NCBI GenBank assembly: GCA_964610505.1
Contig: CAZSXU010000024.1
Location: 91-64,090 of the forward strand
Direction: 5' to 3'
DNA length: 64,000 bases
Origin: an uncultured bacterium
Lineage (GTDB): Bacteria > Arandabacterota > Arandabacteria > JAGLYR01
In this document: piece by piece, positions 4,520-48,133 of the stretch
Layout of the letters: every line of letters begins with the position of its first letter
How positions within the stretch are numbered: position 1 is the stretch's first letter
Made by a program: the position numbers and the translations under genes
The notes under the pieces: model-generated
What the model was told of the DNA's origin: nothing
The model's database searches: none
The model's input: the letters and a program-made list of their open reading frames with translations, nothing else

Positions 4520-4750
4520 GCGTTAATCCCCCCTTCCGCCGTGGCGTCGGCGACGCCGAGCCCTGCCCGCAGCGGAACGCCCGAATCCAGGACCACCAAG
4601 AAGGTAACGAAGCACACGAAGAAAACACGAAGGACACGAAGGGGGAAATCGGCGCCCTGCGGGAAAACCCATTTGCGAGTCCCGAGTCCCTTGTCCCGGG
4701 CCCTCGTCACTCGCTCTCAACTCAGAACGTAGAACTTAGAACTCAGAACT

Positions 4751-6473: not shown

Positions 6474-7760
6474 TCAGGGTTGGGGGGTCTTGGAATCCGG
6501 CGTGGGGAGCAAGGGCCGTTCCCGGCGGTACGTTTGTTTGAGACGGCTCCAGGTGGCGGGTTCGACGGACATCTCTTCTCCGGCGGTGCAGGATTCCCCG
6601 AGTGCTCCGATCAATACGCTACACGAGTTGTTCTCGGGGAGACAGGGAGAGTCGGGCCCCACCCCGAAATTCCCCGCAGGCGGATCGCAGAACCGGGGAT
6701 CCATGGACAAATTTCCGTGGATCCCTTCGTGCTCGGCGATGCAGCCGGTCCAGTCGCCGCCTCCGTTTTCGAAGAGATTGCAGCACAGCAGATTCGGCTC
6801 GCTGCTGGCGCCGCAGGAGATGGTTTCTCCTCCGATGCTCATGGCGATGACCACTCGAATGAGTGTAGGGGAGGAGAGATCGCAGTGGATCGCGGCGCCC
6901 TCGATGCTTGCGCTGTTTCCCCAGAAGGTGCAGTAGGTGATCTCCGGCGAGGAGAGCTCCAGATATATGGCGCCGCCCACGTCGGCGACGTTGGAGACGA
7001 TGATACAGTGCTCAAGAGTCGGGCTGTAGGCGCCGCAGGTGAGCCCGCCCCCCTGGATCGCCGTGTTCTCTGAGATCGTGCAGTTCGTAATCAGCGGGAA
7101 GCTGTAGTAGAGGTACACTCCGCCGCCCGTGTAGGTGGCCGAATTTCCGGTGATGGTGCAGTTGTCGATGGTCGGGGAGGAGTCCTCGCGGCAATTGATG
7201 CCACCGCCGTAGCCCTGCACCCCCCCGGCGGTGTTGTCGGCGATTGTGCAATCGCTGATGGTGGGCGTTGAGGTTCCAATGCAGAGGATCCCGCCGCCCC
7301 GGGTCATCACGCCGCCGGTCTCGTTCTCGACCACGGCGCAATTGACGATCGAGGGAGAGGCGGATTCGCAGTAGATCCCGCCTCCCCCGGTGGCCGACGA
7401 GATATATCCGTGAGTGATCGTGACGCTGCGAAGGATCGATTCGGGACCTTCCGCCGTGTGGAAGTGAAAACCTCGATGAGGGTCGGATTCACTTCCTTCG
7501 CAATCGATGATGCACAGCTCGGGATCGTCGCTCTCGGATCGAACCGTGAGATCTTTTCCCAGAAAGTCGATGTCGCGGTTTCCCTCACCCGTAAAGGTGC
7601 CGTCGCCTAGGCTGACGGTATCCCCTTCCGCCGCGGCCGTGACCGCCTCCTGAATCGTGGCGTAGTCCCCCGTGCCGTCGGGCCGAACGAGATGCGTGGC
7701 CGCGAAGACGGGCGAAGCGATCGTAATCATCAAGGACAACGCGAGAAGCAAGCGGCGCAC
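6474..7760 (-). CDS. Secreted right-handed parallel beta-helix repeat protein
   Basis: Repeated NCTITGNSATYTGGGVY / NCTISENTAIQGGGL / CIIVSNVADVGGAIY beta-helix rungs. The likely start is GTG at 7760 (RRLLLALSLMITIASPVFAA signal) with a GGGAGA SD 5 nt upstream. The track start at 7994 probably over-extends. Confidence 0.75.
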   Translation of the reverse strand: MRRLLLALSLMITIASPVFAATHLVRPDGTGDYATIQEAVTAAAEGDTVSLGDGTFTGEGNRDIDFLGKDLTVRSESDDPELCIIDCEGSESDPHRGFHFHTAEGPESILRSVTITHGYISSATGGGGIYCESASPSIVNCAVVENETGGVMTRGGGILCIGTSTPTISDCTIADNTAGGVQGYGGGINCREDSSPTIDNCTITGNSATYTGGGVYLYYSFPLITNCTISENTAIQGGGLTCGAYSPTLEHCIIVSNVADVGGAIYLELSSPEITYCTFWGNSASIEGAAIHCDLSSPTLIRVVIAMSIGGETISCGASSEPNLLCCNLFENGGGDWTGCIAEHEGIHGNLSMDPRFCDPPAGNFGVGPDSPCLPENNSCSVLIGALGESCTAGEEMSVEPATWSRLKQTYRRERPLLPTPDSKTPQP

Positions 7761-8007
7761 AGCCGTCTCCCATGAGCGGGGATTCAATCCGACCCATTCC
7801 AGCCCAAGAGTGCGGTCTTTCGAGCATCTTGTCCATATGGAAAGTCGGCCGAAATCGGGTTTCGCTGAAGCGCAGGAACAGACTGGATGGTCGGAATTCG
7901 GACTGCGGGTCAGACTCCAAGATCCCCAACAGGCCGAAGAAACAGGGGCGGCCCGATGGCCGCCCCTGTAGGTCTCATTCCCGACCGCATGCATCCGGCC
8001 GGGATCG

Positions 8008-24467: not shown

Positions 24468-25157
24468 CTAGTACCTGTACATCGACTTCATTTCACTCCA
24501 GGTTTGAAGCTCGTCTACGGGGCCGCCCTCGCACGGGTTGCCGATGGAGAAGCCATGGCCATAGATCACGGCGCCGTGGTGCTGGACGACGGGATCCTCC
24601 GCGAAATCGTCCGTGCAGTCGAGGGCGTAGTTGTGCGGGAAGGAGGCGTCGCTGTAGTTGCTCGGAGCGTAGTCGATGATGGTGGGTTCCATTCCGGAGA
24701 AATCAACCCGAAGGCGGCCGAAAACGACACCGCCGTCGGCTGACTGCGGTTCGAGACAGTGGGCGTTTCCCCAGGTGACGATGCGCCCGCCGCGCCATAC
24801 ATCTCCCAGGCTGGGAAACGCAGGGGCCGATCCGCACCATGTGATTTCCTCGAAAGACGCGCCGGAACCGGAAACAACCTCAAGAGCGAATTCGATCCCC
24901 GACAGTCCGCTCACGTTATACGCCACCAGGTAGATCGTCCCCTGATCGAAGGATGTGGCCAATTCCTCGGGCGTGAAGTCCCAGTCGATTTCCTCGCACG
25001 ATTGAGGGCAGTCGCTCGGGCAGCCGAGATAACGATCCGATGCCACGCAGTGCATGGCCAGCCGGACGCCGGTGTTCTCACCGGCGGCCGCGCGGCCGTC
25101 CCAGAGCGCTCCGGAAACCGTGATCACTGCAACCGACAGTAAGATTCGAATGTTCAT
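24468..25157 (-). CDS. Secreted hypothetical protein (Cys-rich N-terminal region)
   Basis: MNIRILLSVAVITVSGALW signal. No recognisable family. Start is ATG 25157 (the track starts at GTG 25181). Confidence 0.6.
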   Translation of the reverse strand: MNIRILLSVAVITVSGALWDGRAAAGENTGVRLAMHCVASDRYLGCPSDCPQSCEEIDWDFTPEELATSFDQGTIYLVAYNVSGLSGIEFALEVVSGSGASFEEITWCGSAPAFPSLGDVWRGGRIVTWGNAHCLEPQSADGGVVFGRLRVDFSGMEPTIIDYAPSNYSDASFPHNYALDCTDDFAEDPVVQHHGAVIYGHGFSIGNPCEGGPVDELQTWSEMKSMYRY

Positions 25158-25407
25158 ATCCACCCCCCTCACAAACTTCACCAGTGCATATCAACCGTAC
25201 TCACGAGACGCATGAGTGTCAAGAGACGCGATGAGATGAGGGAGAGACGGTGGGACAGACTCAAACCCGTGGGCCACGGATTTCGCAGAGGGCAACCCGT
25301 AGACTTTCAGCAGGGAGCCTTCACTACAGAGCACAGGGTCCACGAAGGGAGAAGGAAACGGGCGGTCTGCCGGCCGCCCGGGTCCAATCCTCCAATCGTC
25401 CGTTTTC

Positions 25408-27906
25408 CTATCGAATCAGTACCATCTTTCGCGTCAGGTTCTCGGCGCCGACGTCCAGGCGATAGAAGTACACGCCGGTCGAGACTTGGGCGCCCCGGTT
25501 GTCCTTGCCGTCCCATTCAACCACCCACTCCCCCGAGATGATCGAATTCTCGATGAGGGTCACGACCTGCCGTCCGGTGACGTCGAAGACGCGAAGCGTG
25601 GCCCTTGCACCGGATCCCGGTACGGAAAGCCGGATGGTCGTTTGCGGATTGAAAGGATTGGGTACGTTTTGCCCCAGCGCGATGCGGCCCGCCCTCGAGA
25701 CCTCCGTTTCGGCCGCGCCCGTCGTGGCCTCCTGGTACGTGACCAGGGAGAAGTCATCCACGCCGGCCTCTACAATCGAGCCGTCGCCCTCGTCCGCCGC
25801 GATGAATCGGAACTGCACCTGGTCGTTGAAGTCGACATAATCTTCGAGAGAAAACTCGACCCTGTCCCACTCGTGTGTACTTGCGGAAGTGGTTTGCAGG
25901 GTATCCCACGTCGCCCATCCGTCGTCGCTGACGTGGACCCTCCACACGTCGGTGCCCGCCGCGGAGCCGGTGTCGTTCGCGTACCAGTAGTGGTACCGGA
26001 CCGCCGCGTTGGTGTACATGGTGAGATCAAAAACGGGCGACACGAGCGTCGTCCGGCCGCCGTCCACGTCGTAGCTCCCCTGGCCGGAGCCCGCCGCGCA
26101 CTGGGTGATATAGGCGTCCACTCCCGGATCGGGCGTGTGATCGTCCTCGGGCTGGGCCTCGGTCCACTCGGGATCGCATCGCTCCCAGATCCCGGTCGTC
26201 GCGCCGTCGCCGGTCGCGCCCACGGTCCAACCCTTGTGCGTCTCGAAGTCGTCCTCGAAAAAGGCGGTGATGGTTCCGACGAAAAAGGTATACACGTCCG
26301 CAGGAGCGTTCTTCGGATTCATCGCCCGATTCCCGTCCGTGTCTTCCGCCACGATGTAGTACTCGACGAACGTCCCGCCCGGCTGTGGGGGGATGAAGGC
26401 TTCGTATTCATTCGGGGTTCCGGTTGCCGAGAGCTCCAACGTGTTCTCGCCCGCTCCGGTCGAATACCGGACCAGGAGAGAATCCGGATTCAAGGTGCCC
26501 GCGGCCACGATTTCGGTCACGACCCGGTACGGTTGGATGCTGTCCTCGGTGTTCTCCAGGGGGGTATCATGAAGGATCGAGAGCGAGAAAGGCTCGGCCG
26601 CCGTGGCTAGGAACGCGACCGCCGCCTTGACGGAGCGCTCGGCCAGAGTCGAGGAGTTGTAGCTCAGCCCCACCACGTCGCTCGTCGTATGAATGTACGG
26701 ACTGTAGCTGCCGCTGTCCTCGAAGAAGAGAACGGCGTCGTAGCCGTGGGCCCAGAAGGACGCGTGATCGCTGCTGGCGCCGCCGGGAAGATAACCGTCC
26801 ACGATAGGCAGATCCGACACGTAGAGGGCGGCCACATCTTCGAGCACGTCGCGCATCCACTGGGAGTTGGTGTTGCTGATGATGTCCAGATCCAGTGCGT
26901 CTCCGCCGGCCAGGTATCCGATCATGTCCACCGATATCATCCCGACGATGTCTTCGCCGCGTGCGGCCGCGTCCGCCGCGTACCCCTCACTTCCGTAGAG
27001 TCCCAGTTCCTCGCCGCCGAAGGCGATGAATACCAGCGTGTAGCTGAATTCGTAGTTGCTGAGAACCCGGGCGCATTCCAGTGCGCAGACCGTTCCGGAC
27101 GCGTTGTCGTCGGCACCGGGGCAGTTGTTCTGGTCGGACGTGATGGAGTCGTAGTGGCCGCCGATAACGAATACCTTGTCGGGGTCTCCCGAGCCCGGAA
27201 TGACGGCCACAACGTTGTCCTTGTAGATGGAGCTGAAATTGTGGAAATACACGCTGTCGATGCCGTACGATTCGAACTCGGCCTTGATCCATTCGGCCGC
27301 GGCCTGGCAGCTGTCGTGCGTGGCGTAGCGCGTGACGAAATCCTGCAAGCGCTGTACGCCGGCGTCTACTGCGGCGCTGGACACCTCATTGACCATTGCC
27401 TGAATGGCGGGGTCGGCCGCCTTGGCCGCCGTTCGAATCACCGGTCTCTCCACCGGCGCGGGTCGGATGGGCCGCATGAAGACCCGCGCGATCTCGAATC
27501 CCTCCGCCGCAAGGGAGTGAATCTCCCCCTCGGTTGCCTCCACGACGGCGTCGAACCCGACGTCATCGAATCCGACGGCATAGAGAATGCGGGCCCTGGT
27601 TTGGAGATCGGAGAGGCGAGCACGGTCCCTTACCCCGACGGTGTAGTACGTCTTTCCCTCGACGGACGCATCCAGGATCCGCCAGTCCACGTCCAACGCG
27701 TCCATTCGCTCGATGTCCCGAGGTCCTGCAACCACCAAGAGGTACCGTTCCATGTCCCGAACGACATTCACGTCTTCGGACAGAAGCCGGGTGGCCGTCC
27801 GAATCTCCGGACCGTTGACAACGATGAGAGCGTTTTCCACAGGCATCGCCGCGATGACCGGCGAAATCGGCATTGCGAAAAGCGCCAAAGCCAGAAGCGT
27901 ACGCAT
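25408..27906 (-). CDS. M28-family zinc aminopeptidase with shared ~175-aa jelly-roll-like domain and Por_Secre_tail/FlgD-Ig-like C-terminal sorting domain
   Basis: Signal MRTLLALALFAMPISPVIAA. M28 core VVAVIPGSGDPDKVFVIGGHYDS...GADDNASGTVCALECARVL...FIAFGGEELGLYGSEGY. A middle FFEDDFETHKGWTVGATGDGATTGIWERCDPEWTEAQPEDDHTPD... domain is shared with the giant C25 protein. The C-terminus LGQNVPNPFNPQTTIRLSVPGSGARATLRVFDVTGRQVVTL...WDGKDNRGAQVSTGVYFYRL...RKMVLIR is the sorting domain. Start is ATG 27906 with a GGAAGGA SD. The track ORF extends to 28227. Confidence 0.85.
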   Translation of the reverse strand: MRTLLALALFAMPISPVIAAMPVENALIVVNGPEIRTATRLLSEDVNVVRDMERYLLVVAGPRDIERMDALDVDWRILDASVEGKTYYTVGVRDRARLSDLQTRARILYAVGFDDVGFDAVVEATEGEIHSLAAEGFEIARVFMRPIRPAPVERPVIRTAAKAADPAIQAMVNEVSSAAVDAGVQRLQDFVTRYATHDSCQAAAEWIKAEFESYGIDSVYFHNFSSIYKDNVVAVIPGSGDPDKVFVIGGHYDSITSDQNNCPGADDNASGTVCALECARVLSNYEFSYTLVFIAFGGEELGLYGSEGYAADAAARGEDIVGMISVDMIGYLAGGDALDLDIISNTNSQWMRDVLEDVAALYVSDLPIVDGYLPGGASSDHASFWAHGYDAVLFFEDSGSYSPYIHTTSDVVGLSYNSSTLAERSVKAAVAFLATAAEPFSLSILHDTPLENTEDSIQPYRVVTEIVAAGTLNPDSLLVRYSTGAGENTLELSATGTPNEYEAFIPPQPGGTFVEYYIVAEDTDGNRAMNPKNAPADVYTFFVGTITAFFEDDFETHKGWTVGATGDGATTGIWERCDPEWTEAQPEDDHTPDPGVDAYITQCAAGSGQGSYDVDGGRTTLVSPVFDLTMYTNAAVRYHYWYANDTGSAAGTDVWRVHVSDDGWATWDTLQTTSASTHEWDRVEFSLEDYVDFNDQVQFRFIAADEGDGSIVEAGVDDFSLVTYQEATTGAAETEVSRAGRIALGQNVPNPFNPQTTIRLSVPGSGARATLRVFDVTGRQVVTLIENSIISGEWVVEWDGKDNRGAQVSTGVYFYRLDVGAENLTRKMVLIR

Positions 27907-28087
27907 GAGCGGTTCCTTCCTTGTGGGTTTGTCTGGACGTGACAAGACGCAAAATAACTTGCACTGTCTAATATAGCACATTTGGAGGTTTGCATCCAAC
28001 AAAACGCCGGGCCCGAACCCGAGCTTCGTCGCGCGAAACGGGCGCCTCACAAAGTCGAATCCCGTTTTGGAGTACGCCGCCGATCTC

Positions 28088-29575
28088 TCAGTCGCGGTTT
28101 CTTTCCCGCCACAACAGACCCGTGGTTCCGATCCACAGGATGGCAAGAACGCCGAAGCCGACCTGCCAGAATCGTCCGGCCGGAGTTGAGAGGGCGGTCG
28201 TCGCAAGGAAGAAGTTCTTGTGCTCAAATCCCCAGTACTGGAGAAGCGGTGACCACTGCCAGGCCCACCGCATGTCCGGATAATACGGGCTTCTGAGGAT
28301 GCCGTAGTGCGCCTTCATAACGGAGTAGTAGTCGTTGAAGCTCACGAGGATACCCGAGAAGGCGATCACGGCCGACAGGACGGCGACGACCAAAACGATC
28401 CAAGCCCCTGTCGGTCGATCCCGTCTCTCGTCAATCCAGTATCCGAGGGGCAGGACCAGAAGCGGAAGCACCGGCACGAAGAAGCGCGGGCCCCAGCACC
28501 ATCCGCCTTCCCACGACCACCATTTGGCGTGAAACAAAGCCGGGATCAGGAGCATGGAGAAGAGAAAGACCGAGAGTGCGCGGTCCCTCTTCCAACGGAG
28601 GATGAGAACGACCAGGGACAGGAGCGCGAGCGGGAAGTACAGAAACAGCCCGCGTCCGGGAGAGATCAGGAGTCCGATGACGCCGGACAGGAAAGGATGT
28701 GTGAAGTCGATCTTGGAGGAGTAGCCGGTTTCAAAGATCGTCCCGAATCGATACGCGTTGTAGTAGAGAATGATGGGGAAGAGGGAGATCAGTCCCAGTC
28801 CGAGAGTTGCCAGGTGCCGCAGACGGTCTTGCTTCGTCCACACGAGTACCGCGGCGAAAGGAAGAGCCGCGGCCAGGAATACGGCGTTCGCCGCCTTGAT
28901 CAGCAGGGCGGCGGAGAGAGCGACGCCGGCCCAGAAGAGCGAGCGCGAAGAGGCATCTTGCCGGTGCTTCAGCATCAGATACAGGAACAGCAGGAGCGCC
29001 AGGGCGGACATGGGCTCGCCGAAAAAGGTCTTCGAGTAGTGCCAGAGGGGAGAGGCGGCCCCGAGGATGAAGGCGAGAGCGAGGGACGTGCCTCGCCCGA
29101 GTCCCAGGGTGAGACTCACGGCATAGAGAAGCCAGACCACGCCGGCGGCGACGATCGCATTCGTCAGGGAAACACCCCAGATTCGAACGAACGTGTTGAA
29201 CTCGCGCGGGTGAAACAGCTTGAGTGGACGCTGGAATACGGGCTCGCTTGTCGCGGGGGCGATCTCCGCGACTCCCCGCCCCAGGAGGTAAAAGGGGACG
29301 GCCGCCAGCGAAGGCCCCAATCCGTAGATGGCGTATCGCCGCCCGTCCCGCCCGATCTCGGTGTGCCAGAAGGACCAGTCCCCCTCCTGTGTCGGGAGCG
29401 CCGGATCCCCGCGTTCGACCAGGCCCTCCGTCACCAGATACATCAACGTGCCGTCGGGTGTGAAGATGTGGCCGGACGTGGTGAGGAGATAGAAGAGGGC
29501 AAACCAGAGGAACAGAATCAGGCCGATTCTCCCCGGACCCCGGGGATCGCGCGTGTCGAAGCTCTCCTTTGGCAT
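28088..29575 (-). CDS. Polytopic membrane glycosyltransferase-like protein (GT39/GT83 ArnT/PMT-type fold, inference)
   Basis: 495 aa with ~12 TM helices, aromatic-rich loops, and an N-terminal periplasmic loop containing a VTEGLVERGD acidic motif. The family assignment is by overall topology only. Confidence 0.7.
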   Translation of the reverse strand: MPKESFDTRDPRGPGRIGLILFLWFALFYLLTTSGHIFTPDGTLMYLVTEGLVERGDPALPTQEGDWSFWHTEIGRDGRRYAIYGLGPSLAAVPFYLLGRGVAEIAPATSEPVFQRPLKLFHPREFNTFVRIWGVSLTNAIVAAGVVWLLYAVSLTLGLGRGTSLALAFILGAASPLWHYSKTFFGEPMSALALLLFLYLMLKHRQDASSRSLFWAGVALSAALLIKAANAVFLAAALPFAAVLVWTKQDRLRHLATLGLGLISLFPIILYYNAYRFGTIFETGYSSKIDFTHPFLSGVIGLLISPGRGLFLYFPLALLSLVVLILRWKRDRALSVFLFSMLLIPALFHAKWWSWEGGWCWGPRFFVPVLPLLVLPLGYWIDERRDRPTGAWIVLVVAVLSAVIAFSGILVSFNDYYSVMKAHYGILRSPYYPDMRWAWQWSPLLQYWGFEHKNFFLATTALSTPAGRFWQVGFGVLAILWIGTTGLLWRERNRD

Positions 29576-29588
29576 ATCTCTATCATAC

Positions 29589-29720
29589 GCGAATGGGCGA
29601 ATGGGCGAAAGGGCGAAAGGGTCCCGAGAGCCGAGAACCGAGAGCTGAAAGCCGAGAGCCGAGAACCGAGAACCGAGAGCCGAAGGCCGAGAGCCGAAAG
29701 CCGAAAGCCGAGAACCGGAG
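29589..29720. repeat. 9-bp-periodic simple sequence repeat (GCCGAGAAC / GCCGAGAGC / GCCGAAAGC, ~14 units) preceded by (GAATGGGC)2(GAAAGGGC)2
   Basis: Read directly in the divergent promoter region between the GT-like gene (minus, start 29575) and the response-regulator gene (plus, start 29911). A related CCACTTTCGACTCTCCACTTTCGACTTTCGG tract lies at 29771-29801. Confidence 0.65.
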
Positions 29721-29910
29721 TGCGGACCCTCTTCCCTTGTTCCTCGCCCATGTCACTTGCTCTCGGGTACGTCCACTTTCGACTCTCCACTTTCGACTTT
29801 CGGCATTGCATCGGGCCTTTCCCGCTGCGCAAGGCACGAGCCGAAACCGCGTCCCGGCCCCCTCGCGGCCTCTTGACAACCTCTCGGAGCGCGCATACGT
29901 TGGAGCCGTC

Positions 29911-35227: not shown

Positions 35228-38200
35228 ATGCGCTGTGCTACGATTCTGTCCATCGTACTCGTCGGTCTGCTGTGTCTTGGGGTGGTGCCCGCCGCCGCCT
35301 CGGAGATGACTCACACAGTGATCTTCGACCCCGATCGGATGTCGATCGAAAGCCGAGAAGGGTTTGATGTGGTCCGGGTCGGGGAATGCCGGTTTGAACT
35401 GGTAGCCGGCAAGCCCATGATTCCGGTGCGAACGATCCACTTTTCCATCCCCGCCGGGATGGTCGCGACGGCCCTGGAGATTCGCTCCCTCGAGCAAATC
35501 GAGCTGGACGCCGACCTCTACCTCCACCCGTCTCAACCCCCCGTTCGTCTGAGCGACAAGACCACTCGCCAATTCATCGGCCCGGACCCGGTCGTCTATG
35601 AATCCGCGGAGCCGTATCCGGGAAGTGTGGCGAAGCTGATGACCAATGGGCACATGGGCGGTTACGCGGTGGTGGGCGTTCAGGTTTATCCCGTGGAGTA
35701 CCGGCCCGCCCAGCGAAAGGTCTATCTGAACCGGCGGATCGAGCTGGCTCTGATTCTGGGGCCGGCCGAGGAGCCGGCGGGAATCATCACCGGTCGTACG
35801 GAGGCGGGCGAAAGGGCCGTCATGGACCGGGTGCGCGCGCTGGTGGTCAATCCCGAACAGGTAGCCGAGCACATCGGTCCGAGGCCCAAGGGCGACCGGC
35901 AGAGCATCGTCGAGTACGCCATCATCACCGGCTCGAGCTACGTCGACGAGTTTCAGCCTCTAGCCGACTGGAAGACCAAGAAGGGCGTTCCTACGGAGAT
36001 TTTCACCACGGATTGGATCTACGCCAACTACACGGGTACGGATAACCAGGAAGAAATCCGGAACTTCATCAAGGACTACGAAGCCACCGAGGGGCTGGTC
36101 TACGTTCTCCTGGGTGGGGACGACGACGTCGTTCCGGCGAGAATCGCCTGGGACGATCTCGGCTACGACGGCATCCGGGCCGATCTCTACTACTCCGACA
36201 CCGATGGGAGCTGGAACTGGGACGGCGATGGGTACTGGGGCGAACATCCGGCCGATGACGTCGATATGTACGGCGATGTCTACGTAGGCCGGGCGCCGGT
36301 CAACACCTCTTCCGAGGCGACGAACTTCGTGGACCAGATTCTGATGTACGAAGCCTCGAGCGCCGGCGCGACCCTGCCGACGGATTTTCAGGAAGACATG
36401 CTGTTCATGGCCGAGATCCTCTGGGACGATCCCGATCCCTATACGAACGGCGGCATCGCCAAGGATATGATTGACACCGGCTACGTACCTTCGCGTTTTG
36501 ACCCGATCACCAAGCTCTACGAAGCCGACGGCAACCTGAACTACACCTCGGCGATGAATGCCATGAACGACGGGCCCGGAATCACGAACCACTGCGGGCA
36601 CTGCAACTACAACGTGATGAGCATCGGGCCGAGCGCGCTCTACAACAGCGACATGGACGCCCTCACCAACGGTTCGCGCCAGGGCATTTACTACACGATC
36701 GGGTGCTGGGCGGCCGCCTTCGACTACGACAATATCGCCGAGCACTACGTCAACAACACGGGCGGTGGCGGAGTCGCCTTCGTCGGCAACAGTCGCTACG
36801 GCTGGGGGTGCCCGGGATATCCGGGTGAGTGCGTATCGGATCTCTACGATCAGGAGTTCTTCCGGGCCCTGTTCACGGACGATCTCTACAACCTCGGCAT
36901 CACGCACGCCGATGCGAGGGATTACTACGTGCCGGATTCCCAGTCCGATGCCTACATGCGGTACGGACTCTACGAGCTGAACGTGCTCGGGTGTCCCGAG
37001 ATGCCCATCTGGACTCGGACGCCGCAAACGCTGGCCGTGAGTCATCCGTCGACCCTGCCGATGGGATCGTCCTACTTCACCGTCCAGGTGAACACGGCGA
37101 AGGCCGCCATCGTGGGCGCGACCGTGTGTCTCATGAAGGACGATGAGGTCTACGAAGTCGATGTTACGGACGGAAGCGGGCAGGTCACATTCGAACCGAC
37201 ACCCGCCACCGGCGGCACCATGACGGTGACGGTTACCATGCATGACTACCTGCCGTACGAGGGCGAGGCGACGGTCGAGGTTGGAACGCCTCCCTCGGCA
37301 CCGACCGGCCTTGCGGCGGTCGGCGGCGACGGTCAGGTGACGCTCTCGTGGAATACAAACCCGGAGCCCGACATCGACTACTACATCATCTACCGTGCGA
37401 CCACACCGGCCCCGGCCGGATCACTCACCACGGTGATGTCCCCCGGGTATCTCGACACCGACGTGGTGAACGATACGACCTACCACTACCGTTTGAGGGC
37501 GGTTGATACCGAGGGGGATAAGAGCGGCTACTCCAACGAAGCGAACGCAACTCCGCAGAAACCGCCCGTGATCTTCATCACACACACACCGCTTACGGAC
37601 ACGGATGATTCCAACAACCCGTATCCGGTTGTGGCCACGATCACGGCGACCGAAACGTCCCTGGACCCGGACTCCCTCCTCGTGATGTACGAAACGCAGA
37701 CGCGAGTCTGGGAATCCGTCGTCATGACCGGCACGGGCACCCCCGACGAGTACCGGGGCGATATCCCGGCTCAGCCGTGCGGGACGCTGGTCGACTACTA
37801 CATCCTGGCGGTGGACATGAACAGCAACCGCGAGACCCATCCGGACCTGGCGCCGGCAAGCACGCATTCCTTTGCCGTCAACTTCACGGTGGTCTTCGAA
37901 GATGATTTCGAGACCGATAAGGGGTGGACGGTGGGAGATGCGGGCGACGACGCGACGACCGGAATCTGGGACCGCTGCGACCCTGAGTGGACCGAGGCCC
38001 AACCCGAGGACGATCACACGCCCGATTCCGGTGTGCGGGCCTACATCACGGATTGCGACGCGGGAACGAGCCAGGGGTCCTACGACGTGGACGGCGGCAA
38101 GACCACTGTGTTGTCGCCGGTGTTCGATCTCTTGGACTATGCCAGTGCGTCGGTCCGGTACTACCGGTGGTACTCCAATGACACGGGCTCGGAGCCCGGC

Positions 38201-39670
38201 ACCGACTACTGGGTGGTTCAGGTCTCGGATGACGGTTGGACCACGTGGGCCACGCTGGAGAACACCAACGTGACGAACCGCAGTTGGCTCATGATGCAGT
38301 TTGACGTCGGCGGCTACGTGGATCTGACGGGCACCGTTCAGTTCCGCTTCATCGCCAGCGATGAAGATCCGGGATCGCTTGTGGAAGCGGGCGTGGACGA
38401 CTTCCTGTTGATGGGGTGTCCAGATCTCACCGATGTGGAACCCCCGACGGTGACCGTCGTGGATCCCAACGGCGGGGAGGCGCTGACGGGCGGCCAACCG
38501 TACGATATCGAGTGGACGTCATCGGACAACGTCGGTGTCGTCTCGACGACCATCCTTCTCTCGACCGACGGCGGCGGGTCGTATCCGACGATGGTTGCCT
38601 CGGGATCCCTGACGTCCCCCTACAGCTGGGACGTTCCGAACGAGGACCAGGCGAGCTGCCGGATCAAGGTAACGTGCGTGGATGCGGCGACGAACGAGGG
38701 AAGCGATGAGTCGGATGCGAATTTCGCCATCGTCTGGCAGGATTACGAGGCCCCCACCGTGACCGTCGTGGATCCCAACGGCGGCGAGGCGATTCAGGGT
38801 GGAGATCCGTACGACATCGAATGGACATCCTCGGACAACGTCGGTGTCGTCACGACCACGATTCTTCTCTCCACAAACGGTGGATCCACGTATCCGACGA
38901 CCATCGCGAGCGGCTCGCTTGCATCACCATATACCTGGGACGTGCCGGATGTGGATGAGCCGTCCTGCCGAATCCGCGTGGTGTGCGAGGACGCCGCAGC
39001 GAATCCGGGCAGCGACGATTCGGACGCGGATTTCTCCATCCTTCCCATCGATCACGAGCCTCCGACGGTGACCGTCCTCGATCCCAACGGGGGCGAGGAG
39101 ATCTTCGGCGCTGGTCCCTATACGATTCGCTGGACGTCGGATGACAACGTCGGCGTCACGCTGACGGCCGTTTTGCTCTCGGTGGACGGCGGTCTCACGT
39201 TCCCCGACACGCTTACCGCCGGGGGGCTGGACTCCGCTTGGGTGTGGGACGTACCGGATGTGGACGAGACGAGCTGCAGGGTCAAAGTCCTCTGCTGGGA
39301 CGCGGAATCGAACGAGGGGAGCGATGCATCGGACGGCGGTTTCACGGTGATCAGTACGGTGACGGCGGTGGCCATGCTGGAAGCGGCTCCGGCGGAACTG
39401 GTGCTTCGCCAGAACCGGCCGAATCCGTTCAACCCGGTGACGGAGATCGAGTTCGGTCTTCCCGAGACCGGGTCGGCACTTCTCGAGGTCTACAACGTGA
39501 ACGGTCGATTGATTACGACACTGGCGGATGGTGTGTTCAACGCCGGCTACCACCGAGTGGTCTGGAGAGGCACGGATGCATTCGGCGCCGAGGTCTCGAG
39601 CGGGATGTATTTCTACCGGCTCGTGACGGAAGAGAAGGTGTTGACGAAGAAGATGTTGATGCTCAAGTAG
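35228..39670 (+). CDS. Giant secreted multidomain peptidase: C25 (gingipain-like) catalytic domain, FN3/Ig-like domains, shared jelly-roll domain, 3 x ~102-aa Ig-like repeats, Por_Secre_tail/FlgD-Ig-like sorting domain
   Basis: Signal MRCATILSIVLVGLLCLGVVPAAAS. C25 blocks are VYVLLGGDDDVVPARIAWDD...DLYYSDTDGSWN...GDVYVGRAPVNTSSEATNFVDQILMYE, ITNHCGHCNYNV (His) and YYTIGCWAAAFDYD (Cys). VVFEDDFETDKGWTVGDAGDDATTGIWDRCDPEWTEAQPEDDHTPD... is shared with the M28 protein. Three TVTV(V/L)DPNGGE...IEWTSSDNVGVV...C(R)I(K/R)V repeats follow. The C-terminus is RQNRPNPFNPVTEIEFGLPETGSALLEVYNVNGRLITTL...GMYFYRL...KKMLMLK. Confidence 0.9.
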   Translation: MRCATILSIVLVGLLCLGVVPAAASEMTHTVIFDPDRMSIESREGFDVVRVGECRFELVAGKPMIPVRTIHFSIPAGMVATALEIRSLEQIELDADLYLHPSQPPVRLSDKTTRQFIGPDPVVYESAEPYPGSVAKLMTNGHMGGYAVVGVQVYPVEYRPAQRKVYLNRRIELALILGPAEEPAGIITGRTEAGERAVMDRVRALVVNPEQVAEHIGPRPKGDRQSIVEYAIITGSSYVDEFQPLADWKTKKGVPTEIFTTDWIYANYTGTDNQEEIRNFIKDYEATEGLVYVLLGGDDDVVPARIAWDDLGYDGIRADLYYSDTDGSWNWDGDGYWGEHPADDVDMYGDVYVGRAPVNTSSEATNFVDQILMYEASSAGATLPTDFQEDMLFMAEILWDDPDPYTNGGIAKDMIDTGYVPSRFDPITKLYEADGNLNYTSAMNAMNDGPGITNHCGHCNYNVMSIGPSALYNSDMDALTNGSRQGIYYTIGCWAAAFDYDNIAEHYVNNTGGGGVAFVGNSRYGWGCPGYPGECVSDLYDQEFFRALFTDDLYNLGITHADARDYYVPDSQSDAYMRYGLYELNVLGCPEMPIWTRTPQTLAVSHPSTLPMGSSYFTVQVNTAKAAIVGATVCLMKDDEVYEVDVTDGSGQVTFEPTPATGGTMTVTVTMHDYLPYEGEATVEVGTPPSAPTGLAAVGGDGQVTLSWNTNPEPDIDYYIIYRATTPAPAGSLTTVMSPGYLDTDVVNDTTYHYRLRAVDTEGDKSGYSNEANATPQKPPVIFITHTPLTDTDDSNNPYPVVATITATETSLDPDSLLVMYETQTRVWESVVMTGTGTPDEYRGDIPAQPCGTLVDYYILAVDMNSNRETHPDLAPASTHSFAVNFTVVFEDDFETDKGWTVGDAGDDATTGIWDRCDPEWTEAQPEDDHTPDSGVRAYITDCDAGTSQGSYDVDGGKTTVLSPVFDLLDYASASVRYYRWYSNDTGSEPGTDYWVVQVSDDGWTTWATLENTNVTNRSWLMMQFDVGGYVDLTGTVQFRFIASDEDPGSLVEAGVDDFLLMGCPDLTDVEPPTVTVVDPNGGEALTGGQPYDIEWTSSDNVGVVSTTILLSTDGGGSYPTMVASGSLTSPYSWDVPNEDQASCRIKVTCVDAATNEGSDESDANFAIVWQDYEAPTVTVVDPNGGEAIQGGDPYDIEWTSSDNVGVVTTTILLSTNGGSTYPTTIASGSLASPYTWDVPDVDEPSCRIRVVCEDAAANPGSDDSDADFSILPIDHEPPTVTVLDPNGGEEIFGAGPYTIRWTSDDNVGVTLTAVLLSVDGGLTFPDTLTAGGLDSAWVWDVPDVDETSCRVKVLCWDAESNEGSDASDGGFTVISTVTAVAMLEAAPAELVLRQNRPNPFNPVTEIEFGLPETGSALLEVYNVNGRLITTLADGVFNAGYHRVVWRGTDAFGAEVSSGMYFYRLVTEEKVLTKKMLMLK
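38441..39362 (+). repeat. Intragenic tandem repeats, 3 x ~306 bp (~80% nt identity), encoding the three Ig-like modules of the giant C25 protein
   Basis: Repeat starts are at ~38444, ~38753 and ~39059. The opening of each unit (gaccgtcgtggatcccaacggcgg...) is nearly identical. Confidence 0.7.
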
Positions 39671-42614: not shown

Positions 42615-44198
42615 ATGGGAAGCGGAGGAGTACCCCAGGATGGCGACGGTGTCATTCGCGCTCTCTTGATTGAGAGTGACCGGTCACATGCCGAGATTCT
42701 CCGCCTGCGGATGAGTGAGCTCCCGGCGGGTCCCGCCCGGTCTCCGCTTCACATTGAGTGGGAGGGGAGTCTGTCCAAGGGACTCCGGCGGATTGCCGAG
42801 GGCGGTGTAGACGTGCTCCTGCTTGATTTGATGCTCGAAGATTCGCAGGGGCTGGCGACGTTTACCGCCGTGCGTAGTGAGGCCCCTGGCCTGCCGGTGG
42901 TGATCCTCTCGACGGTGGAGGCCGAGTCCATGGCCGTCCTGGCCGTGCAGCGAGGGGCACAGGACTATCTTGTCAAGGACGGTCTGGACTCTAACGTAGT
43001 GGCGCGGGCGCTCCGCTATGCTGTGGAACGCCGGACGCTCCAGACGGAATCGGAGCAGCAGCGACGCCGGATGGGACGGATGCTTCGCGAGAGCGAGGAC
43101 CGCGGCCGGGGTCTCTTCGAGGGGGTCCCGATTGGACTCTACCGGAGCACGCCCGAGGGATTGATCCTCGACGCGAATCCCGCCCTTGCGGACATGCTGG
43201 GGTATCCCTACCGGGAGGCGCTGCTATCCGTGGATTCGGCCGATCTATACGTGAACGTCGAGGATCGCCGCAGGTGGCGGGAACAGATCGAGAGAGATGG
43301 AGTTCTGCGCCATTTCGCGATGAGGCTTCGCCGGAAAGACGGGGAGATCATCTGGGTCGAAGACACCGCTCGTACGGTGCGAGGCCGCGACGGGGGCGTC
43401 CTCTACTACGAGGGGGGCCTGGAAGACGTCTCCGATCGAGTTCACGCCGAGGAAGCCCTCAAGGCCAGCAGGGCCAGCTTCCACAGCATCGTCGAGGCGT
43501 CGACCGACGGCGTGGTGGTCATCGGCCGAAACGGCCTCGTTCGCTTTGCCAATACGGCGGCCGGAGATCTCCTCGGGCGGCCGGTCGAAGATCTCGTGGG
43601 CAAAGTGTTTGAATTCGCCATGGCCATCGGGGAGGGGGCGGAGATCGATCTGCCCTCCGAATCAGACGAGGCCCGGGTGGCCGATGTGCGGGTGACCGAG
43701 ACCGAGTGGGAGGGCGAGCCCGCTTACCTCGCTTCTCTTCGCGATATCACCGGTCGCAAGGCGGCCGAGGAAGCCCTGGCGAGAAGCGAAGAGCGCTTCC
43801 GCACGCTGGTCGAGACCATCCCCTACGGGGTGGAGGAGATTGATGCCTCGGGAATGCGTCTCTTCGCCAACCGAACGCTCCACCGGATGTACGAGTCTGA
43901 GGAGGGCGATCTCGTCGGCAAATCCATTCTGGATTTGGCGCCGACCGATTCGGACCGAGAACGGCTCCGGAAGCATCTGGAGCGATTGGTGAGAGAGCAA
44001 CCCCCTCCCACCACCTATGTGGGCAAGAAGGTGACTCGAACCGGGCGCGTGATCGACGTCGAGATGGCTTGGGAATACCGACGCGACCCCGACGGCCGGG
44101 TGATGGGATTCACCACGGTGATTGCGGATGTCACGGGTCGCAAGGAAAAGAGACCGGTGCTCACCTCGCCCACAGCGGATGCTCACCTCGTCCGGTAG
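42615..44198 (+). CDS. Response-regulator receiver domain protein with three PAS domains and no recognisable output domain
   Basis: REC (IRALLIESDRSHAEILRLRM...VDVLLLDLMLEDSQGLATF...VVILSTVEAESMAVLAVQRGAQDYLVKD) is followed by PAS-like segments (LFEGVPIGLYRSTPEGLILDANPALADMLGY...; FHSIVEASTDGVVVIGRNGLVRFANTAAGDLLG...; FRTLVETIPYGVEEIDASGMRLFANRTLHRMY...). Confidence 0.8.
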   Translation: MGSGGVPQDGDGVIRALLIESDRSHAEILRLRMSELPAGPARSPLHIEWEGSLSKGLRRIAEGGVDVLLLDLMLEDSQGLATFTAVRSEAPGLPVVILSTVEAESMAVLAVQRGAQDYLVKDGLDSNVVARALRYAVERRTLQTESEQQRRRMGRMLRESEDRGRGLFEGVPIGLYRSTPEGLILDANPALADMLGYPYREALLSVDSADLYVNVEDRRRWREQIERDGVLRHFAMRLRRKDGEIIWVEDTARTVRGRDGGVLYYEGGLEDVSDRVHAEEALKASRASFHSIVEASTDGVVVIGRNGLVRFANTAAGDLLGRPVEDLVGKVFEFAMAIGEGAEIDLPSESDEARVADVRVTETEWEGEPAYLASLRDITGRKAAEEALARSEERFRTLVETIPYGVEEIDASGMRLFANRTLHRMYESEEGDLVGKSILDLAPTDSDRERLRKHLERLVREQPPPTTYVGKKVTRTGRVIDVEMAWEYRRDPDGRVMGFTTVIADVTGRKEKRPVLTSPTADAHLVR

Positions 44199-44815
44199 GC
44201 TCCGGGCACCCCTCGCGTGAAGAGGTCCTTGAGAACCACGCGGTACGCCGGCTTGTAGGCGCCCCGGTAGTCATCCGAATGGTGAAGCGGCGGGTAGTCT
44301 CGGTCCCTGGCGAAAGCGTCGACGGCCTCGAAGTCTTCCATCGGAATGTCGATCTCCTCACGCTTGACCAGCTCGCGAAACGCGTTCCACCGCCCGAGAA
44401 AGAGCGCTGTATCCGCCTGCACGGTCGCAGCCGTCTCCATCATCACGGTGAGGAGTGCGTCCCGTGAGAGGTTCTGGGCCACGAACGGTCTCAGATTGAC
44501 GCGCACCATGCGGCCGCGAGGATCCAGAGGTTCGATGAGGGGCTCGTGCGCCTTTGGAGGGCCCAGGGTGAAGATCTCCCTCTCGAGAGCCGTTCGCGCG
44601 GACGCCTCGCCCTTGATTAGGTGGCCGATGCCGAATACCGACTGGGAGATGAGTTTATAATAATCCTCGGCGCGGGATTTCGGAAAACGCTGTTCATGTT
44701 GCAGAAGGAGCCTCTGAAACGCTTCCCGCTCAACCGAATCCAAAGCATCTTCCCCCTGTTCCGCACACGCGCAGAACAGCAGCGCCCCCAAGCAGATGAG
44801 AATCCCAGCCCGCAT
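44183..44815 (-). CDS. Hypothetical lipoprotein
   Basis: MRAGILICLGALLFCACAEQ lipobox. No family was recognised. Start is ATG 44815; the track ORF extends to 44917. Confidence 0.55.
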   Translation of the reverse strand: MRAGILICLGALLFCACAEQGEDALDSVEREAFQRLLLQHEQRFPKSRAEDYYKLISQSVFGIGHLIKGEASARTALEREIFTLGPPKAHEPLIEPLDPRGRMVRVNLRPFVAQNLSRDALLTVMMETAATVQADTALFLGRWNAFRELVKREEIDIPMEDFEAVDAFARDRDYPPLHHSDDYRGAYKPAYRVVLKDLFTRGVPGAYRTR

Positions 44816-45064: not shown

Positions 45065-45850
45065 CTACTCCCGCCCTCTGCGGTCGAGGAACGTCTTCAC
45101 TCTGCCCCACGTCTCCTCGATCGTGGCCGAGGGGTAGCAGGGTGAATCCCAGGTGATATCGTGGGACGCTGCGTTCGTACAGGCGACGAATTCCGAACGG
45201 CACATCTTCGAGGCGTCGCCGGGAGCCGAATCCTTCCGCTCGCGGTCCAATGCGACCGTTGATACGGCATCGTGCCGGAAGGTGACTCCATAGAAGTCGA
45301 AGTGGATCGTGAGACCGCCGATCATCCGTAACGGGTGAACCTCGATCGGTATCTCCACGGTGTCCTTGCGAGCCACGCCGGTTCCTATGCGAACGAAGAC
45401 CACGCCTTCCGCCCCGTTGTAGAGTGCGGATTCGCCGTCGCCCGGTCGATTGCCCGCAGGGCCGAACGGCTCGCCGTTATTGTCGTAGAAATCTTCGCGT
45501 GTGACGACCCAATTCCCGACGTCGATGGAAGAGAAATCCCCGTCCTTGTAGGCCAACAGGAAAACCAGGTCGTCCAGCGGATGCTGGCCGTTGTTGTAGA
45601 TGGCAATCGGAAAATCATATCGATCGATGATCACATCGGATTCGCAGAACCACTCGTCTTCACAGTCGTACCAGTAGTCGGGGCCTTCGTCGAAGACCCC
45701 GTCCGTAGCGGCCTTCAACTTCACGGGGATGGCACCCGACCAGTCCATCGCGCGGACTTCCTCCAAGGTTAGAACCTGAGCGTCGGCCGTTGCGGCGAGC
45801 AGGGCAAGGAGTGCCACGGTCGATGTGACGTTTCTCGCTATGGATTTCAT
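45065..45850 (-). CDS. Secreted hypothetical protein, paralogue A of a tandem pair
   Basis: Signal MKSIARNVTSTVALLALLAATADA. It shares blocks with the 46069..46791 product (EEVRAMDWSG/DDVRALSWPV; ...PFGPAGNRPGDGESALYNGAEGVVFVRI / PFGPTGNRPGAGESALYNTADGIVFLRI). Confidence 0.65.
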   Translation of the reverse strand: MKSIARNVTSTVALLALLAATADAQVLTLEEVRAMDWSGAIPVKLKAATDGVFDEGPDYWYDCEDEWFCESDVIIDRYDFPIAIYNNGQHPLDDLVFLLAYKDGDFSSIDVGNWVVTREDFYDNNGEPFGPAGNRPGDGESALYNGAEGVVFVRIGTGVARKDTVEIPIEVHPLRMIGGLTIHFDFYGVTFRHDAVSTVALDRERKDSAPGDASKMCRSEFVACTNAASHDITWDSPCYPSATIEETWGRVKTFLDRRGRE

Positions 45851-45920
45851 GTGAGCAACCTCCGGGAATGGCCGCCGAGCCCTCGGTACTCGCTGGCGGG
45901 GTCCTATTCGGCCGGTCTAC

Positions 45921-46074
45921 GGCGATGTCGGTTCCATGATCAGCTTCTGCCAATCTAAGGCGATGTCGGTTTCCGGATCAGTTTCGGCCAATCTAAGGCG
46001 ATGTCGGTTTCCGGATCAGTTTCGGCCCGTCTAGGACCATGTCGGTCTCTGAATCAGCCTCAACCAGTCTATGG
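45921..46074. repeat. Tandem repeat, ~38 bp x 4 (GGCGATGTCGGTTTCCGGATCAGTTTCGGCCAATCTAA consensus, last unit degenerate) between the two paralogous genes
   Basis: Read directly. The units are contiguous with no spacers. The last unit overlaps the stop of the 46069..46791 gene. Confidence 0.7.
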
Positions 46075-46791
46075 TGAAAAGAGGCCCCTGGCCTCTCCGC
46101 GAACTTCCGTCGGTGTTGCCGTCGCGCTCGGAACCGGCCTGCACGTCACATCGCTCGTGGACGGGCAGGAACAGAACACCCTGGACCGCCGGAGGCCGTA
46201 GACGTCGAAGTGCATCACGAAATCGACGCCCTTCGGCAGGACCTCCACCGGAATCTCGGCGGTGCTCTGTGGAAGAACGGCCCGCGGGATCCGCAGAAAC
46301 ACAATGCCGTCCGCCGTGTTGTAGAGAGCCGACTCTCCGGCGCCGGGGCGATTCCCGGTCGGGCCGAAGGGAGTGCCCTTGAAGGGTTTGAAATCGTCCG
46401 GGCCCAAGGCATACCCGTCGACGGTCATGGCGGAGAAGGTTCCTCCCTTGTGCGCGATCAGAAAAAGAACACTGTCCACCAAGTAGATGTTGGTGTTCCG
46501 GATCGAAATCGTGAAGCCGCGGCTGTGCTCGACGACGTCCGACTCGTTCAACCATGGGTCGTCGTCGCCATAGACATAGTCCCGACCACCGTCGAACACT
46601 CGGTCCGACGCCGCCAGGAGAGTCATGGGAAGCGCCACCGGCCAGCTCAGCGCCCGGACATCGTCTTCGGACAGGATCTCGCCGTGGGCATCAGACTGCG
46701 CCGGCATGACGAGGAAAACCGTCACGAGCAACAGAAAGGTCTCGGCGTGCTTCAAGGAATCACCTCTTCGAATCACGACCGGCGTGATCAT
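46069..46791 (-). CDS. Secreted hypothetical protein, paralogue B of a tandem pair
   Basis: MITPVVIRRGDSLKHAETFLLLVTVFLVMPAQSDA signal. It is homologous to the 45065..45850 product. The start is uncertain (the track ORF extends to 46839). Confidence 0.6.
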   Translation of the reverse strand: MITPVVIRRGDSLKHAETFLLLVTVFLVMPAQSDAHGEILSEDDVRALSWPVALPMTLLAASDRVFDGGRDYVYGDDDPWLNESDVVEHSRGFTISIRNTNIYLVDSVLFLIAHKGGTFSAMTVDGYALGPDDFKPFKGTPFGPTGNRPGAGESALYNTADGIVFLRIPRAVLPQSTAEIPVEVLPKGVDFVMHFDVYGLRRSRVFCSCPSTSDVTCRPVPSATATPTEVRGEARGLFSP

Positions 46792-47129
46792 TCGGACTTC
46801 CGAGGTCGGGTTCCAAGGAGCGTCCTTCTTCTCATCCATCGACCTGCGGGAAAGACTGCTTTAGGATTGGCTTTCCCGGATATGGAGGTCCTGCCGGCGG
46901 ATGGATCCCGGGGAGGGGCGTGGGTGGTGAAGCGCGCGCAACTTTGGGCGGGTTTGGGCCGGATTGGCATCCGATCGGGGGAGCAGACGGGAAGGAATCT
47001 CGGTCTCGGGAGAATTGAGGCGGCGAGCCGGCGGTGTTAGCATTCGTCGCGCCGGGGGGCTGCGGGAGAACGGTCGATGCCGGGGTCAACGCATGGAGTG
47101 CGGGGCGAATGCGAACAATCGCCACGACA

Positions 47130-47474
47130 TCATTTCGCCGTCTTCGGCACCATACACAAGAACCGCAGCGGGCCGTCGCCCACGTTCCTGAACTGGTGTT
47201 CCTCGCCCGCCGGCATGAGAACCGCCGATCCCGAACGGAGGTTCTTCTCCCCACCCGTCCCGTAGACCGTGCCCCGGCCTTCCAGGACAAACACCTCGTG
47301 CTCGTAGTCGTGAGAGTGCCGGGGGCTGCACCCTCCCCTCTCGACCTCGAACAGTCGCATGTAGAAATTCGGGGGATCGTCCTCCTCGCCGACGAGCCAC
47401 TGGATCGTGACATTCTCGGCTCCCGGGATATCCATCTTCTCTTTGACGATCTCGGATTCGTGAACCACCTTCAT
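47130..47474 (-). CDS. Cupin-domain protein
   Basis: GGCSPRHSHDYEHEVFVLEGRGTV...AVLMPAGEEHQFRNVGDGPLRFLC matches cupin motifs 1 and 2 (G(X)5HXH(X)3-4E(X)6G ... G(X)5PXG(X)2H(X)3N). Confidence 0.8.
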   Translation of the reverse strand: MKVVHESEIVKEKMDIPGAENVTIQWLVGEEDDPPNFYMRLFEVERGGCSPRHSHDYEHEVFVLEGRGTVYGTGGEKNLRSGSAVLMPAGEEHQFRNVGDGPLRFLCMVPKTAK

Positions 47475-47569: not shown

Positions 47570-47933
47570 TCGGTCGCGTGGGCCTTGCGCTTCGGGAAAG
47601 GTTCGGCGTCGTCCGGGCCAAGGCGGAAGGGGGGATTGCATTTGTGGAGGAGGGTGGCGACCCCCTGCGTTGAAACACACTCGCCGTGGCCCTTCCTCCG
47701 GCGAACCCTCCCCGTCGCCGGCCCGCGGTATGGGGGGGCGGCTTTCGCATTTCGGTCGCGTGGGCCTTATGCCGCGGAGAAGGCTCGGCGTCACTCCTCC
47801 ACCGCGTGAATGGGGGATTCGGATCGGCGGAGAGGGTGGCCACCCGCGGCGTTGAAAGACCCCACGCGCTGTCGTCGTTCCGCGAACCTTCCCCGCGCCC
47901 GGCCGCCGTACGGGGTCTCGCCTCTCAACTTTC
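47570..47933. repeat. Tandemly duplicated ~182-bp element (2 copies, ~70% identity; each starts TCGGTCGCGTGGGCCTT and contains GGGGGATT...GGAGGGTGGC.ACCC..GCGTTGAAA), then a cluster of AATCTGTGG-type motifs at 47989-48103
   Basis: Read directly in the 660-bp non-coding gap between the cupin and DUF401 genes. Unit A can fold into a long imperfect stem (GGAGGAGGGUGGCGA...UCGCCGUGGCCCUUCCUCC). Confidence 0.55.
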
Positions 47934-48133
47934 AACTCTCGACTCTCTGCCTTACGGTCCCATCTTCGTCACCTTGCAGGGAAGGTCGCTCTGTGGAATC
48001 TGTGCAATCTGTGGTTTCGGGGTTCGAGTTTCTGTATCTGCGCAATCTGCGTAATCTGCGGACAAAGGTTGTGGGTTTCGAATCCGTGAAATCTGTGGCT
48101 GGGATTACGGTTGACTCGCCGTCCTGCTCTCGA

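Follow-up and report, generated by a model that had tools for sequence, protein, structure and literature searches.

The “choice-of-anchor” concept describes proteins in which a domain is followed by a recognised C-terminal sorting signal, PEP-CTERM or another. The “choice-of-anchor N protein” of NCBIfam (NF038141), whose members carry a signal peptide at the N-terminus and, after it, a single domain of ~180 aa, is a named but functionally uncharacterised family, and the literature searched for this family and for Candidatus Eisenbacteria contained no functional work on it. Among repeats located between bacterial genes, the closest known type to the one considered here is the MIRU-VNTR class of mycobacteria (MIRU, mycobacterial interspersed repetitive unit; VNTR, variable number tandem repeat), which consists of intercistronic units of ~40-100 nt whose ends overlap the flanking genes and whose internal open reading frames (ORFs) couple their translation (PMC3184786; PMC12548453). 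Here we describe two adjacent minus-strand genes, termed A and B, and the array of 38-nt units that separates them, within a 64,000-nt stretch (the window) of contig CAZSXU010000024.1 from an uncultured bacterium (assembly GCA_964610505.1). The explanation that we favor, and hold as a whole with moderate confidence, is that A and B, located in a Candidatus Eisenbacteria genome, descend from an old tandem duplication; their products would form a divergent branch of the choice-of-anchor N superfamily, and the array between them would be a minisatellite of this lineage.

The products of A and B share 44% identity over 179 aa (BLASTP, E 2e-49), which bears out a preliminary description of this DNA as containing tandem paralogous genes on the minus strand, and the two sequence blocks quoted there as common to the pair were found in both proteins exactly as given. 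No third paralogue was detected within the 64-kb window by tblastn. Orthologues of A are 52-70% identical to it, and B is 62% identical over its full length to the B orthologue in the relative L001. Gene callers place the start of B at 46839, yielding a gene of 256 aa (46069-46839) in which position 46791 is an internal ATG; the start at 46791 used here is backed by the close homologue P0009, whose N-terminus reads MIAPVAIRRG. In both N-termini the n-region is basic, the core is hydrophobic and the cleavage site is A-x-A-like, and by eye they were judged to be Sec-like signal peptides, ending ...LLALLAATADA before QV in A and ...FLLLVTVFLVMPAQSDA before HG in B, consistent with the earlier view of the pair as signal-peptide proteins. 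Coordinates of these and all other features are given in Table 1.

The layout of the locus differs among eight lineages that carry an A-type gene, the window included. Besides the window, a tandem of B and A is found in L001 (37-nt spacer) and in a JGI contig, 3300042731 (125-nt spacer). In L002, a short remnant of a B-type gene (D-P-W-L-R-E-S-D-V-I-E-H; DPWLRESDVIEHRCDFVIS) is found at 1880-1960, ~100 nt upstream of A, while in L006, L011, L016 and L017 A is a single gene, and the ~300-530 nt seen upstream of it are non-coding and contain no B; sigma-70-like hexamers lie upstream of A in L006 and L017. From this distribution, the A/B duplication predates these lineages, and B has been lost repeatedly with no array present. 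Among these loci, L006 and two further Logan assemblies (L007 and L008), all from different runs, have exactly the same first base, at 347 nt upstream of the A-type gene, which suggests a repeated element or a strain-variable junction beyond the contig end.

Direct scans of A and B against Pfam and NCBIfam returned no match, the only hit being a sub-threshold SAF on B (E 0.1), and to this extent the preliminary statement that no family could be recognised holds. The family is very small, with seven clusters among 5.8 billion proteins. A profile built from eight sequences retrieved 14 representatives among 1.84 billion proteins, exhaustively read: Eisenbacteria A-type and B-type proteins (P0005, P0008 and the fragments P0009 and P0010), proteins of ~280 aa (P0011-P0015, E 1e-17 to 3e-12) and weaker matches (P0017-P0020, E 2e-4 to 5e-4). 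P0016 (2374 aa, 19 matched stretches) was rejected as a family member, as it is a cadherin-like repeat protein sharing only a recurring ASHDVT string. A PEP-CTERM C-terminus (Pfam PF07589) is present in P0011-P0015, P0018 and P0020, and outside Eisenbacteria the closest relatives, which have the domain in common, are PEP-CTERM proteins (P0011-P0015, P0018, P0020, P0022-P0024 and P0026). The blocks DPW..(E/D)S, LL(I/V)AY(K/R), GGNRPGDGE.ALY, HFD.YG and NP.S.DLT are common to the family and P0011-P0015.

Several of these relatives lead to NF038141. Its profile hidden Markov model (HMM) has a curated cut-off of 40 bits, which is exceeded by P0017 (47), P0018 (68), P0022 (48), P0023 (49) and P0026 (108 bits), while P0013 falls below it at 31 bits. 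The same HMM showed no match at E <= 1 to A, B, the B-type protein of L005 or P0008. Two alignments were compared: A1, which contains the Eisenbacteria family only, and whose profile by itself matches P0017, P0018 and P0020 at E 2e-4 to 5e-4, and A5, which was chosen against circularity and consists of five proteins above the NF038141 cut-off plus two at 39 bits. With hhalign, A1 and A5 aligned over 147 columns with a probability of 99.2% (E 1.8e-19), and the blocks of the joint alignment are DPW(L/F).(E/D)S, F.(F/L).I.N, (L/V)(L/I)(I/V)A(Y/H)K, HFD.YG and NP.S.D(L/V)T. A and B share with NF038141 proteins the order of signal peptide and single domain. They differ in lying below detection by the curated HMM, in having no recognised C-terminal sorting domain, in the TWGR(V/I)K tail found in its place, and in an additional strongly conserved loop, PFGP.GNRPG.GE.ALYN, the GGNRPGDGE.ALY form of which is otherwise found only in P0011-P0015. 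From these profile comparisons we conclude that A and B represent a divergent and very small branch of the choice-of-anchor N superfamily, outside its curated threshold. The earlier “no family” verdict is thus revised at the level of profiles, which tie the pair to PEP-CTERM proteins and NF038141, and the HHpred-style search proposed with it does reach a named family, though an uncharacterised one and so not really a well-known one.

An AlphaFold2 model of A contains an all-beta core at about residues 70-190, where the predicted local distance difference test (pLDDT) is 75-90, in a model with a mean pLDDT of 65 and a predicted template modelling score (pTM) of 0.65. Alongside this beta-sandwich core, the landmarks of A are the conserved loop PFGPAGNRPGDGESALYN and the motif SHDITWD. 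The low-confidence parts are the GNRPGDGE loop, an A-specific insertion (residues 194-217) and the tail, and a second prediction from a deeper alignment brought no gain (pLDDT 64.8 versus 65.2). Foldseek against the PDB returned weak beta-sandwich matches only, to TTHA1873, CBM3 modules and mu-homology domains (best E 2.9e-3; TM 0.24-0.38), and a family-profile search of PDB sequences gave no match. By family context, A and B are possibly ligand- or carbohydrate-binding. On this reading, A and B are Sec-exported proteins, each of ~220 aa when mature and built around a beta-sandwich core, which would reside in the envelope or at the surface and be retained or sorted there through a short C-terminal tail; their recognisable relatives are cell-surface proteins anchored by PEP-CTERM and exosortase, an anchor that the A/B branch has lost.

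The tail of A aligns at the place where distant relatives carry the PEAST-hydrophobic helix-RR anchor of PEP-CTERM proteins, and begins with P-S-A-T at the position of their P-E-A-S-T. The pattern in the A/B branch, P-S-A-T-x-E-E-T-W-G-R-(V/I)-K-x-L-F, is short and non-hydrophobic and, unlike PEP-CTERM, lacks the PEP motif proper, the hydrophobic transmembrane stretch and the terminal arginine cluster. Neither A nor B matches the Pfam or NCBIfam models for PEP-CTERM (TIGR02595, PF07589) or the C-terminal type A domain of the type IX secretion system (T9SS; TIGR04183; Por_Secre_tail, ~70-80 aa), nor was any other recognised sorting domain of these databases found on them, the C-terminus being charged or amphipathic. 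The tail motif is conserved in the A-type and B-type orthologues examined, where the sequences read ...TWSRVKRLFAF, ...TWSKVKALFAF and ...TWGRMKVLFAP up to the stop codon. Three mutually unrelated signal-peptide families of the window, the A/B family and two more (Table 1), carry the motif TW[GS]x[VILM]Kxx[FY] at a distance of 5-20 residues from the stop, and many copies end in F or Y, as does the beta-signal of outer-membrane proteins.

Two other exported proteins of the window, a 1480-aa protein and an M28/LapA-like aminopeptidase, have T9SS type A C-terminal domains, from which the organism probably possesses a type IX-like secretion route; the larger of the two also shows a partial match to the PorU sortase that is far sub-threshold (86 bits against a cut-off of 420 bits). 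The TWG motif is missing from both of these domains. Its presence on unrelated secreted proteins, and not on T9SS domains, suggests a modular, lineage-specific C-terminal tag. A tentative interpretation of these alignments is that the tail may be an undescribed Eisenbacteria sorting or attachment tag without a transmembrane helix, which would replace PEP-CTERM in this branch.

The space between B and A is occupied by the array. Tandem Repeats Finder (TRF) reports a period of 38, 4.0 copies, 84% matches and a score of 185 at 45907-46058, in line with the four contiguous 38-bp units first described, and a repeat search places the copies in register with spacings of 38, 38 and 38 nt and with similarity extending on both sides, where we recognise a fifth, decayed unit. 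Read on the coding strand from the stop codon of B, units U1-U4 are identical to one another at 26-36 of 38 positions, and U5 to U1-U4 at 17-22, while random 38-mers of the window share 10.0 +/- 2.8 positions (99.9th percentile, 19). U2 and U3 are the most alike (36/38) and the edge units U1 and U5 are decayed; the exact unit of the preliminary description occurs once, at 45960-45997. Every unit opens with TAG, and the TAG of U1 is the stop codon of B, as expected from the overlap between the last unit and the upstream gene that had been noted before. Because the unit length is not divisible by three (38 mod 3 = 2), successive TAGs, five in all, occupy frames 0, 2, 1, 0 and 2, and all three reading frames are closed. 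Each unit further contains two direct half-sites of the GAAAC type placed 12 nt apart (CCGAAAC...CGGAAAC), and three of the four good units contain a GGA triplet. Three units also contain GATC, which was discounted as significant because this site is over-represented throughout the window (540 observed, 223 expected). In contrast to a CRISPR array, in which repeats are split by unique spacers, the units here are contiguous.

The B-A spacer measures 218 nt in the window compared to 37 nt in L001, and the 31 nt between U5 and the ATG of A align by eye with the L001 spacer (...ACTGGAGGTTCTTGTC, then ATG), so that the 190-nt array looks like an insertion or expansion directly after the stop of B. 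It is missing from L001, L002, L006, L011, L016 and L017, and the 125-nt spacer of the JGI contig is, judged by its length only, too short to hold it. Neither the unit nor its halves recur elsewhere in the 64-kb window with 2-3 mismatches allowed, the unit is absent from plasmid records, and two exact-pattern scans of JGI metagenome contigs, one with a unit junction and one with the start region of A, gave no match. A derivation of the unit from the translation-initiation region of A or the ancestral spacer was rejected, as alignments to five A-type starts scored about as well as shuffles (p 0.05-0.9).

Where slippage or unequal exchange maintains an array, the central units usually resemble one another most and the edge units are decayed, which is the pattern seen here. 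The array is probably an intercistronic minisatellite that is unique to this lineage and neutral or functionless. It would have arisen in this lineage only, directly after the stop of B, probably through replication slippage or unequal recombination, with U2 and U3 kept similar while U1 and U5 decay. It most likely has no sequence-specific function, and its effects would be passive: stretching the spacer from ~37 to 218 nt would abolish translational coupling between B and A, leaving A to rely on its own Shine-Dalgarno sequence.

Several observations weigh against this account of the genes and the array. The family link is transitive and profile-based, since NF038141 is not reached at E <= 1 by either protein of the window, and a binding function is a guess, given mediocre models (mean pLDDT 65) and weak fold matches (TM 0.2-0.4). 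The tail of B is degenerate in the window, where it adjoins the array, while having the same length as in the L001 orthologue and no frameshift, so the tail may not be essential. With regard to the array, its neutrality is an argument from absence. Its four to five units have been retained for so long that they now differ by up to 30%, the two putative half-sites in each could be a protein-binding site, and the scan that found no sigma-70-like promoter and no terminator in the B-A spacer relied on a sigma-70 pattern that may not fit the promoters of this phylum.

The half-sites are also the starting point for the competing view that survives best, in which the array is regulatory, acting either through repeated operator- or iteron-like sites or as a copy-number-variable spacer that tunes or phase-varies A. 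The array sits directly upstream of the ribosome-binding site of A, and A has its own promoter-like upstream region in L006 and L017 and could thus be transcribed independently. However, as the array is missing in all seven other A-type lineages, no conserved regulation depends on it; there is no promoter-like site in or near it; the unit is found nowhere else in 64 kb; and with a period of 38 nt (3.6 turns) successive sites are out of helical phase. Nor was a DNA-binding regulator seen next to the pair, where the cupin and a response regulator were the only genes scanned or domain-annotated, the latter having Response_reg and PAS domains only. We consider a regulatory array unlikely, and regard a copy-number switch for A as much less likely than the use of the tail as a sorting tag. 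The repeated operator suggested in the preliminary description finds no support here, and neither does its other suggestion, that the array could drive recombination or copy-number change of the family: copy number varies anyway among the seven lineages in which the array is missing.

MIRU-like elements, which may be mobile or semi-mobile, are dispersed through a genome in many copies and keep the genes of an operon translationally coupled through internal ORFs, offer a second alternative. The array resembles them in being intercistronic, head-to-tail, composed of units of about 40 nt and overlapping the upstream stop codon as MIRUs do (PMC3184786; PMC12548453). With these units, and with bacterial intergenic minisatellites in general, it also shares a centre in which the copies are most alike. 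It differs in that its period and the TAG in each unit permit no ORF to read through it: all frames are closed within each pair of units, none of the ORFs ends at the ATG of A, and the only internal ORFs, of 15 and 6 aa, lack Shine-Dalgarno sequences and are not adjacent to the start of A, so that coupling to A is absent. The array is moreover confined to a single locus within 64 kb, with no sign of mobility, no terminal inverted repeats and no stable hairpin, and an origin of this kind appears very improbable.

We rate about equally low an action at the RNA level, in which the array, as part of the B-A mRNA, would for example offer repeated binding sites to an RNA-binding protein or influence transcript stability. 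The genes are co-oriented with no terminator between them, so the array is probably transcribed, and the GGA triplets would fit such a role. Against this, no Rfam 15 model reached its gathering score in the window or matched 45700-46300 even at E <= 10, the minimum free energy of the array is not better than that of shuffled sequences on either strand (z +0.59 and +0.91), and the array is not conserved in any relative.

The preliminary description had also raised the possibility of an assembly artefact, on which independent assemblies bear. A contig from ENA ERZ27256770 (k141_458568, L003) is identical to the window throughout the 6,786 bases fetched. Two Logan contigs are likewise identical to the window: L010, the same contig in four samples, extends from the cupin gene across B, U1 and U2 as far as 45998, while L004, in two samples, starts at 45978 and continues through U3-U5, A and beyond. 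The longest exact repeat measures 41 nt and is common to U2/U3 and U3/U4, and the ends of L010 and L004 lie 30 nt into, and 30 nt from the end of, this repeat, on which the Logan assembly graph, presumably built with k=31, must break. On the basis of assemblies, the number of copies in the window is credible, as the units can all be told apart and the ambiguous stretch does not reach 141 nt. Although short-read metagenome assemblies can miscount tandem repeats and the Logan contigs do end inside the array, an artefact in the array or its copy number is hardly credible, because all five units differ, a k=141 contig spans the ambiguous stretch and agrees with the window, and both edges recur without a mismatch in contigs of other runs, whose breaks fall at just the points that such a graph requires.

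Turning to the surroundings of the pair, the sole match in a genome collection was the Candidatus Eisenbacteria metagenome-assembled genome contig JAGLYR010000143, which has the same arrangement of DUF401 permease, cupin and B. The cupin gene between the permease and B is inverted there (L005 3371-3874) relative to the window (47130-47474). Gene C is found downstream of A in every Eisenbacteria locus in which that side is visible, and belongs to a family of at least 111 unannotated homologues. It was considered and rejected as a functional partner, because two more distant homologues that were checked do not adjoin A/B-like genes, and it is probably a local syntenic neighbor. Separately, different tandem repeats of 7-9 nt, such as CCGAGAG x13 and GCGAAAGG x4, are clustered side by side in intergenic regions of the window and of its relatives. 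These clusters resemble the heptameric short tandemly repeated repetitive (STRR) sequences of filamentous cyanobacteria, and the genome appears to be prone to tandem repeats in its spacers.

Table 1. Features of the A/B locus and of other parts of the window, with corresponding positions in relatives where a locus handle (L) is given; units are read on the coding strand
Feature	Position	Strand	Description
Gene A	45065-45850	minus	From ORF list; 261-aa secreted protein; downstream paralogue
Gene B	46069-46791	minus	240-aa secreted protein; upstream paralogue
Signal peptide of A	45779-45850	minus	MKSIARNVTSTVALLALLAATADA, then Q; assigned by inspection of the translation
C-terminal tail of A	45068-45130	minus	PSATIEETWGRVKTFLDRRGRE; alignment and six-frame motif scan
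TWGRVK motif of A	45095-45112	minus	Within the C-terminal tail
Degenerate tail of B	46072-46110	minus	TEVRGEARGLFSP, then stop; ETWGRMKVLFAP, then stop, in the L001 orthologue
Array of 38-nt units	45882-46071	minus	TRF, repeat search, identity matrix with null
U1	46034-46071	minus	TAGACTGGTTGAGGCTGATTCAGAGACCGACATGGTCC
U2	45996-46033	minus	TAGACGGGCCGAAACTGATCCGGAAACCGACATCGCCT
U3	45958-45995	minus	TAGATTGGCCGAAACTGATCCGGAAACCGACATCGCCT
U4	45920-45957	minus	TAGATTGGCAGAAGCTGATCATGGAACCGACATCGCCG
U5 (decayed)	45882-45919	minus	TAGACCGGCCGAATAGGACCCCGCCAGCGAGTACCGAG
Retained ancestral spacer	45851-45881	minus	31 nt; Shine-Dalgarno of A (GGAGG), CCCGGAGGTTGCTCAC, then ATG
Tail motif in relatives	L001 763-780, 1568-1585; L002 2754-2771; L005 4655-4672; L006 1086-1103; L011 3164-3181		
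Tail on 237-aa protein	24468-25181	minus	...ELQTWSEMKSMYRY, then stop; signal peptide; no family
Tail on 506-aa right-handed beta-helix protein	6474-7994	minus	...PATWSRLKQTYRR, then 17 residues; signal peptide
T9SS-type protein 1	35228-39670	plus	1480 aa; type A C-terminal domain; internal repeat 38441-39102, 309 nt x2.1
T9SS-type protein 2	25408-28227	minus	M28/LapA-like aminopeptidase; type A C-terminal domain
Gene C	44183-44815	minus	210-aa putative lipoprotein (LLFCAC); no Pfam/NCBIfam model
Short-tandem-repeat clusters	4485-4751, 29589-29802, 47922-48060; L001 1740-2050; L002 3250-3420		

In summary, an apparent orphan family is now tied to PEP-CTERM and choice-of-anchor proteins, which provides a testable localisation hypothesis in an uncultured phylum. 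If A and B are indeed an old duplicate pair separated by a neutral array, little would change: a divergent, Eisenbacteria-restricted branch would be added to an uncharacterised family of surface proteins, and the array, which might be used as a strain marker (VNTR) for this population, would join the known intergenic minisatellites of bacteria. Among the side leads, the short TWGxxK tail that replaces PEP-CTERM here, and recurs on unrelated secreted proteins of the window, holds the most promise; if this tail does act as a sorting tag, A and B would be cargo of an as yet undescribed route for envelope sorting.

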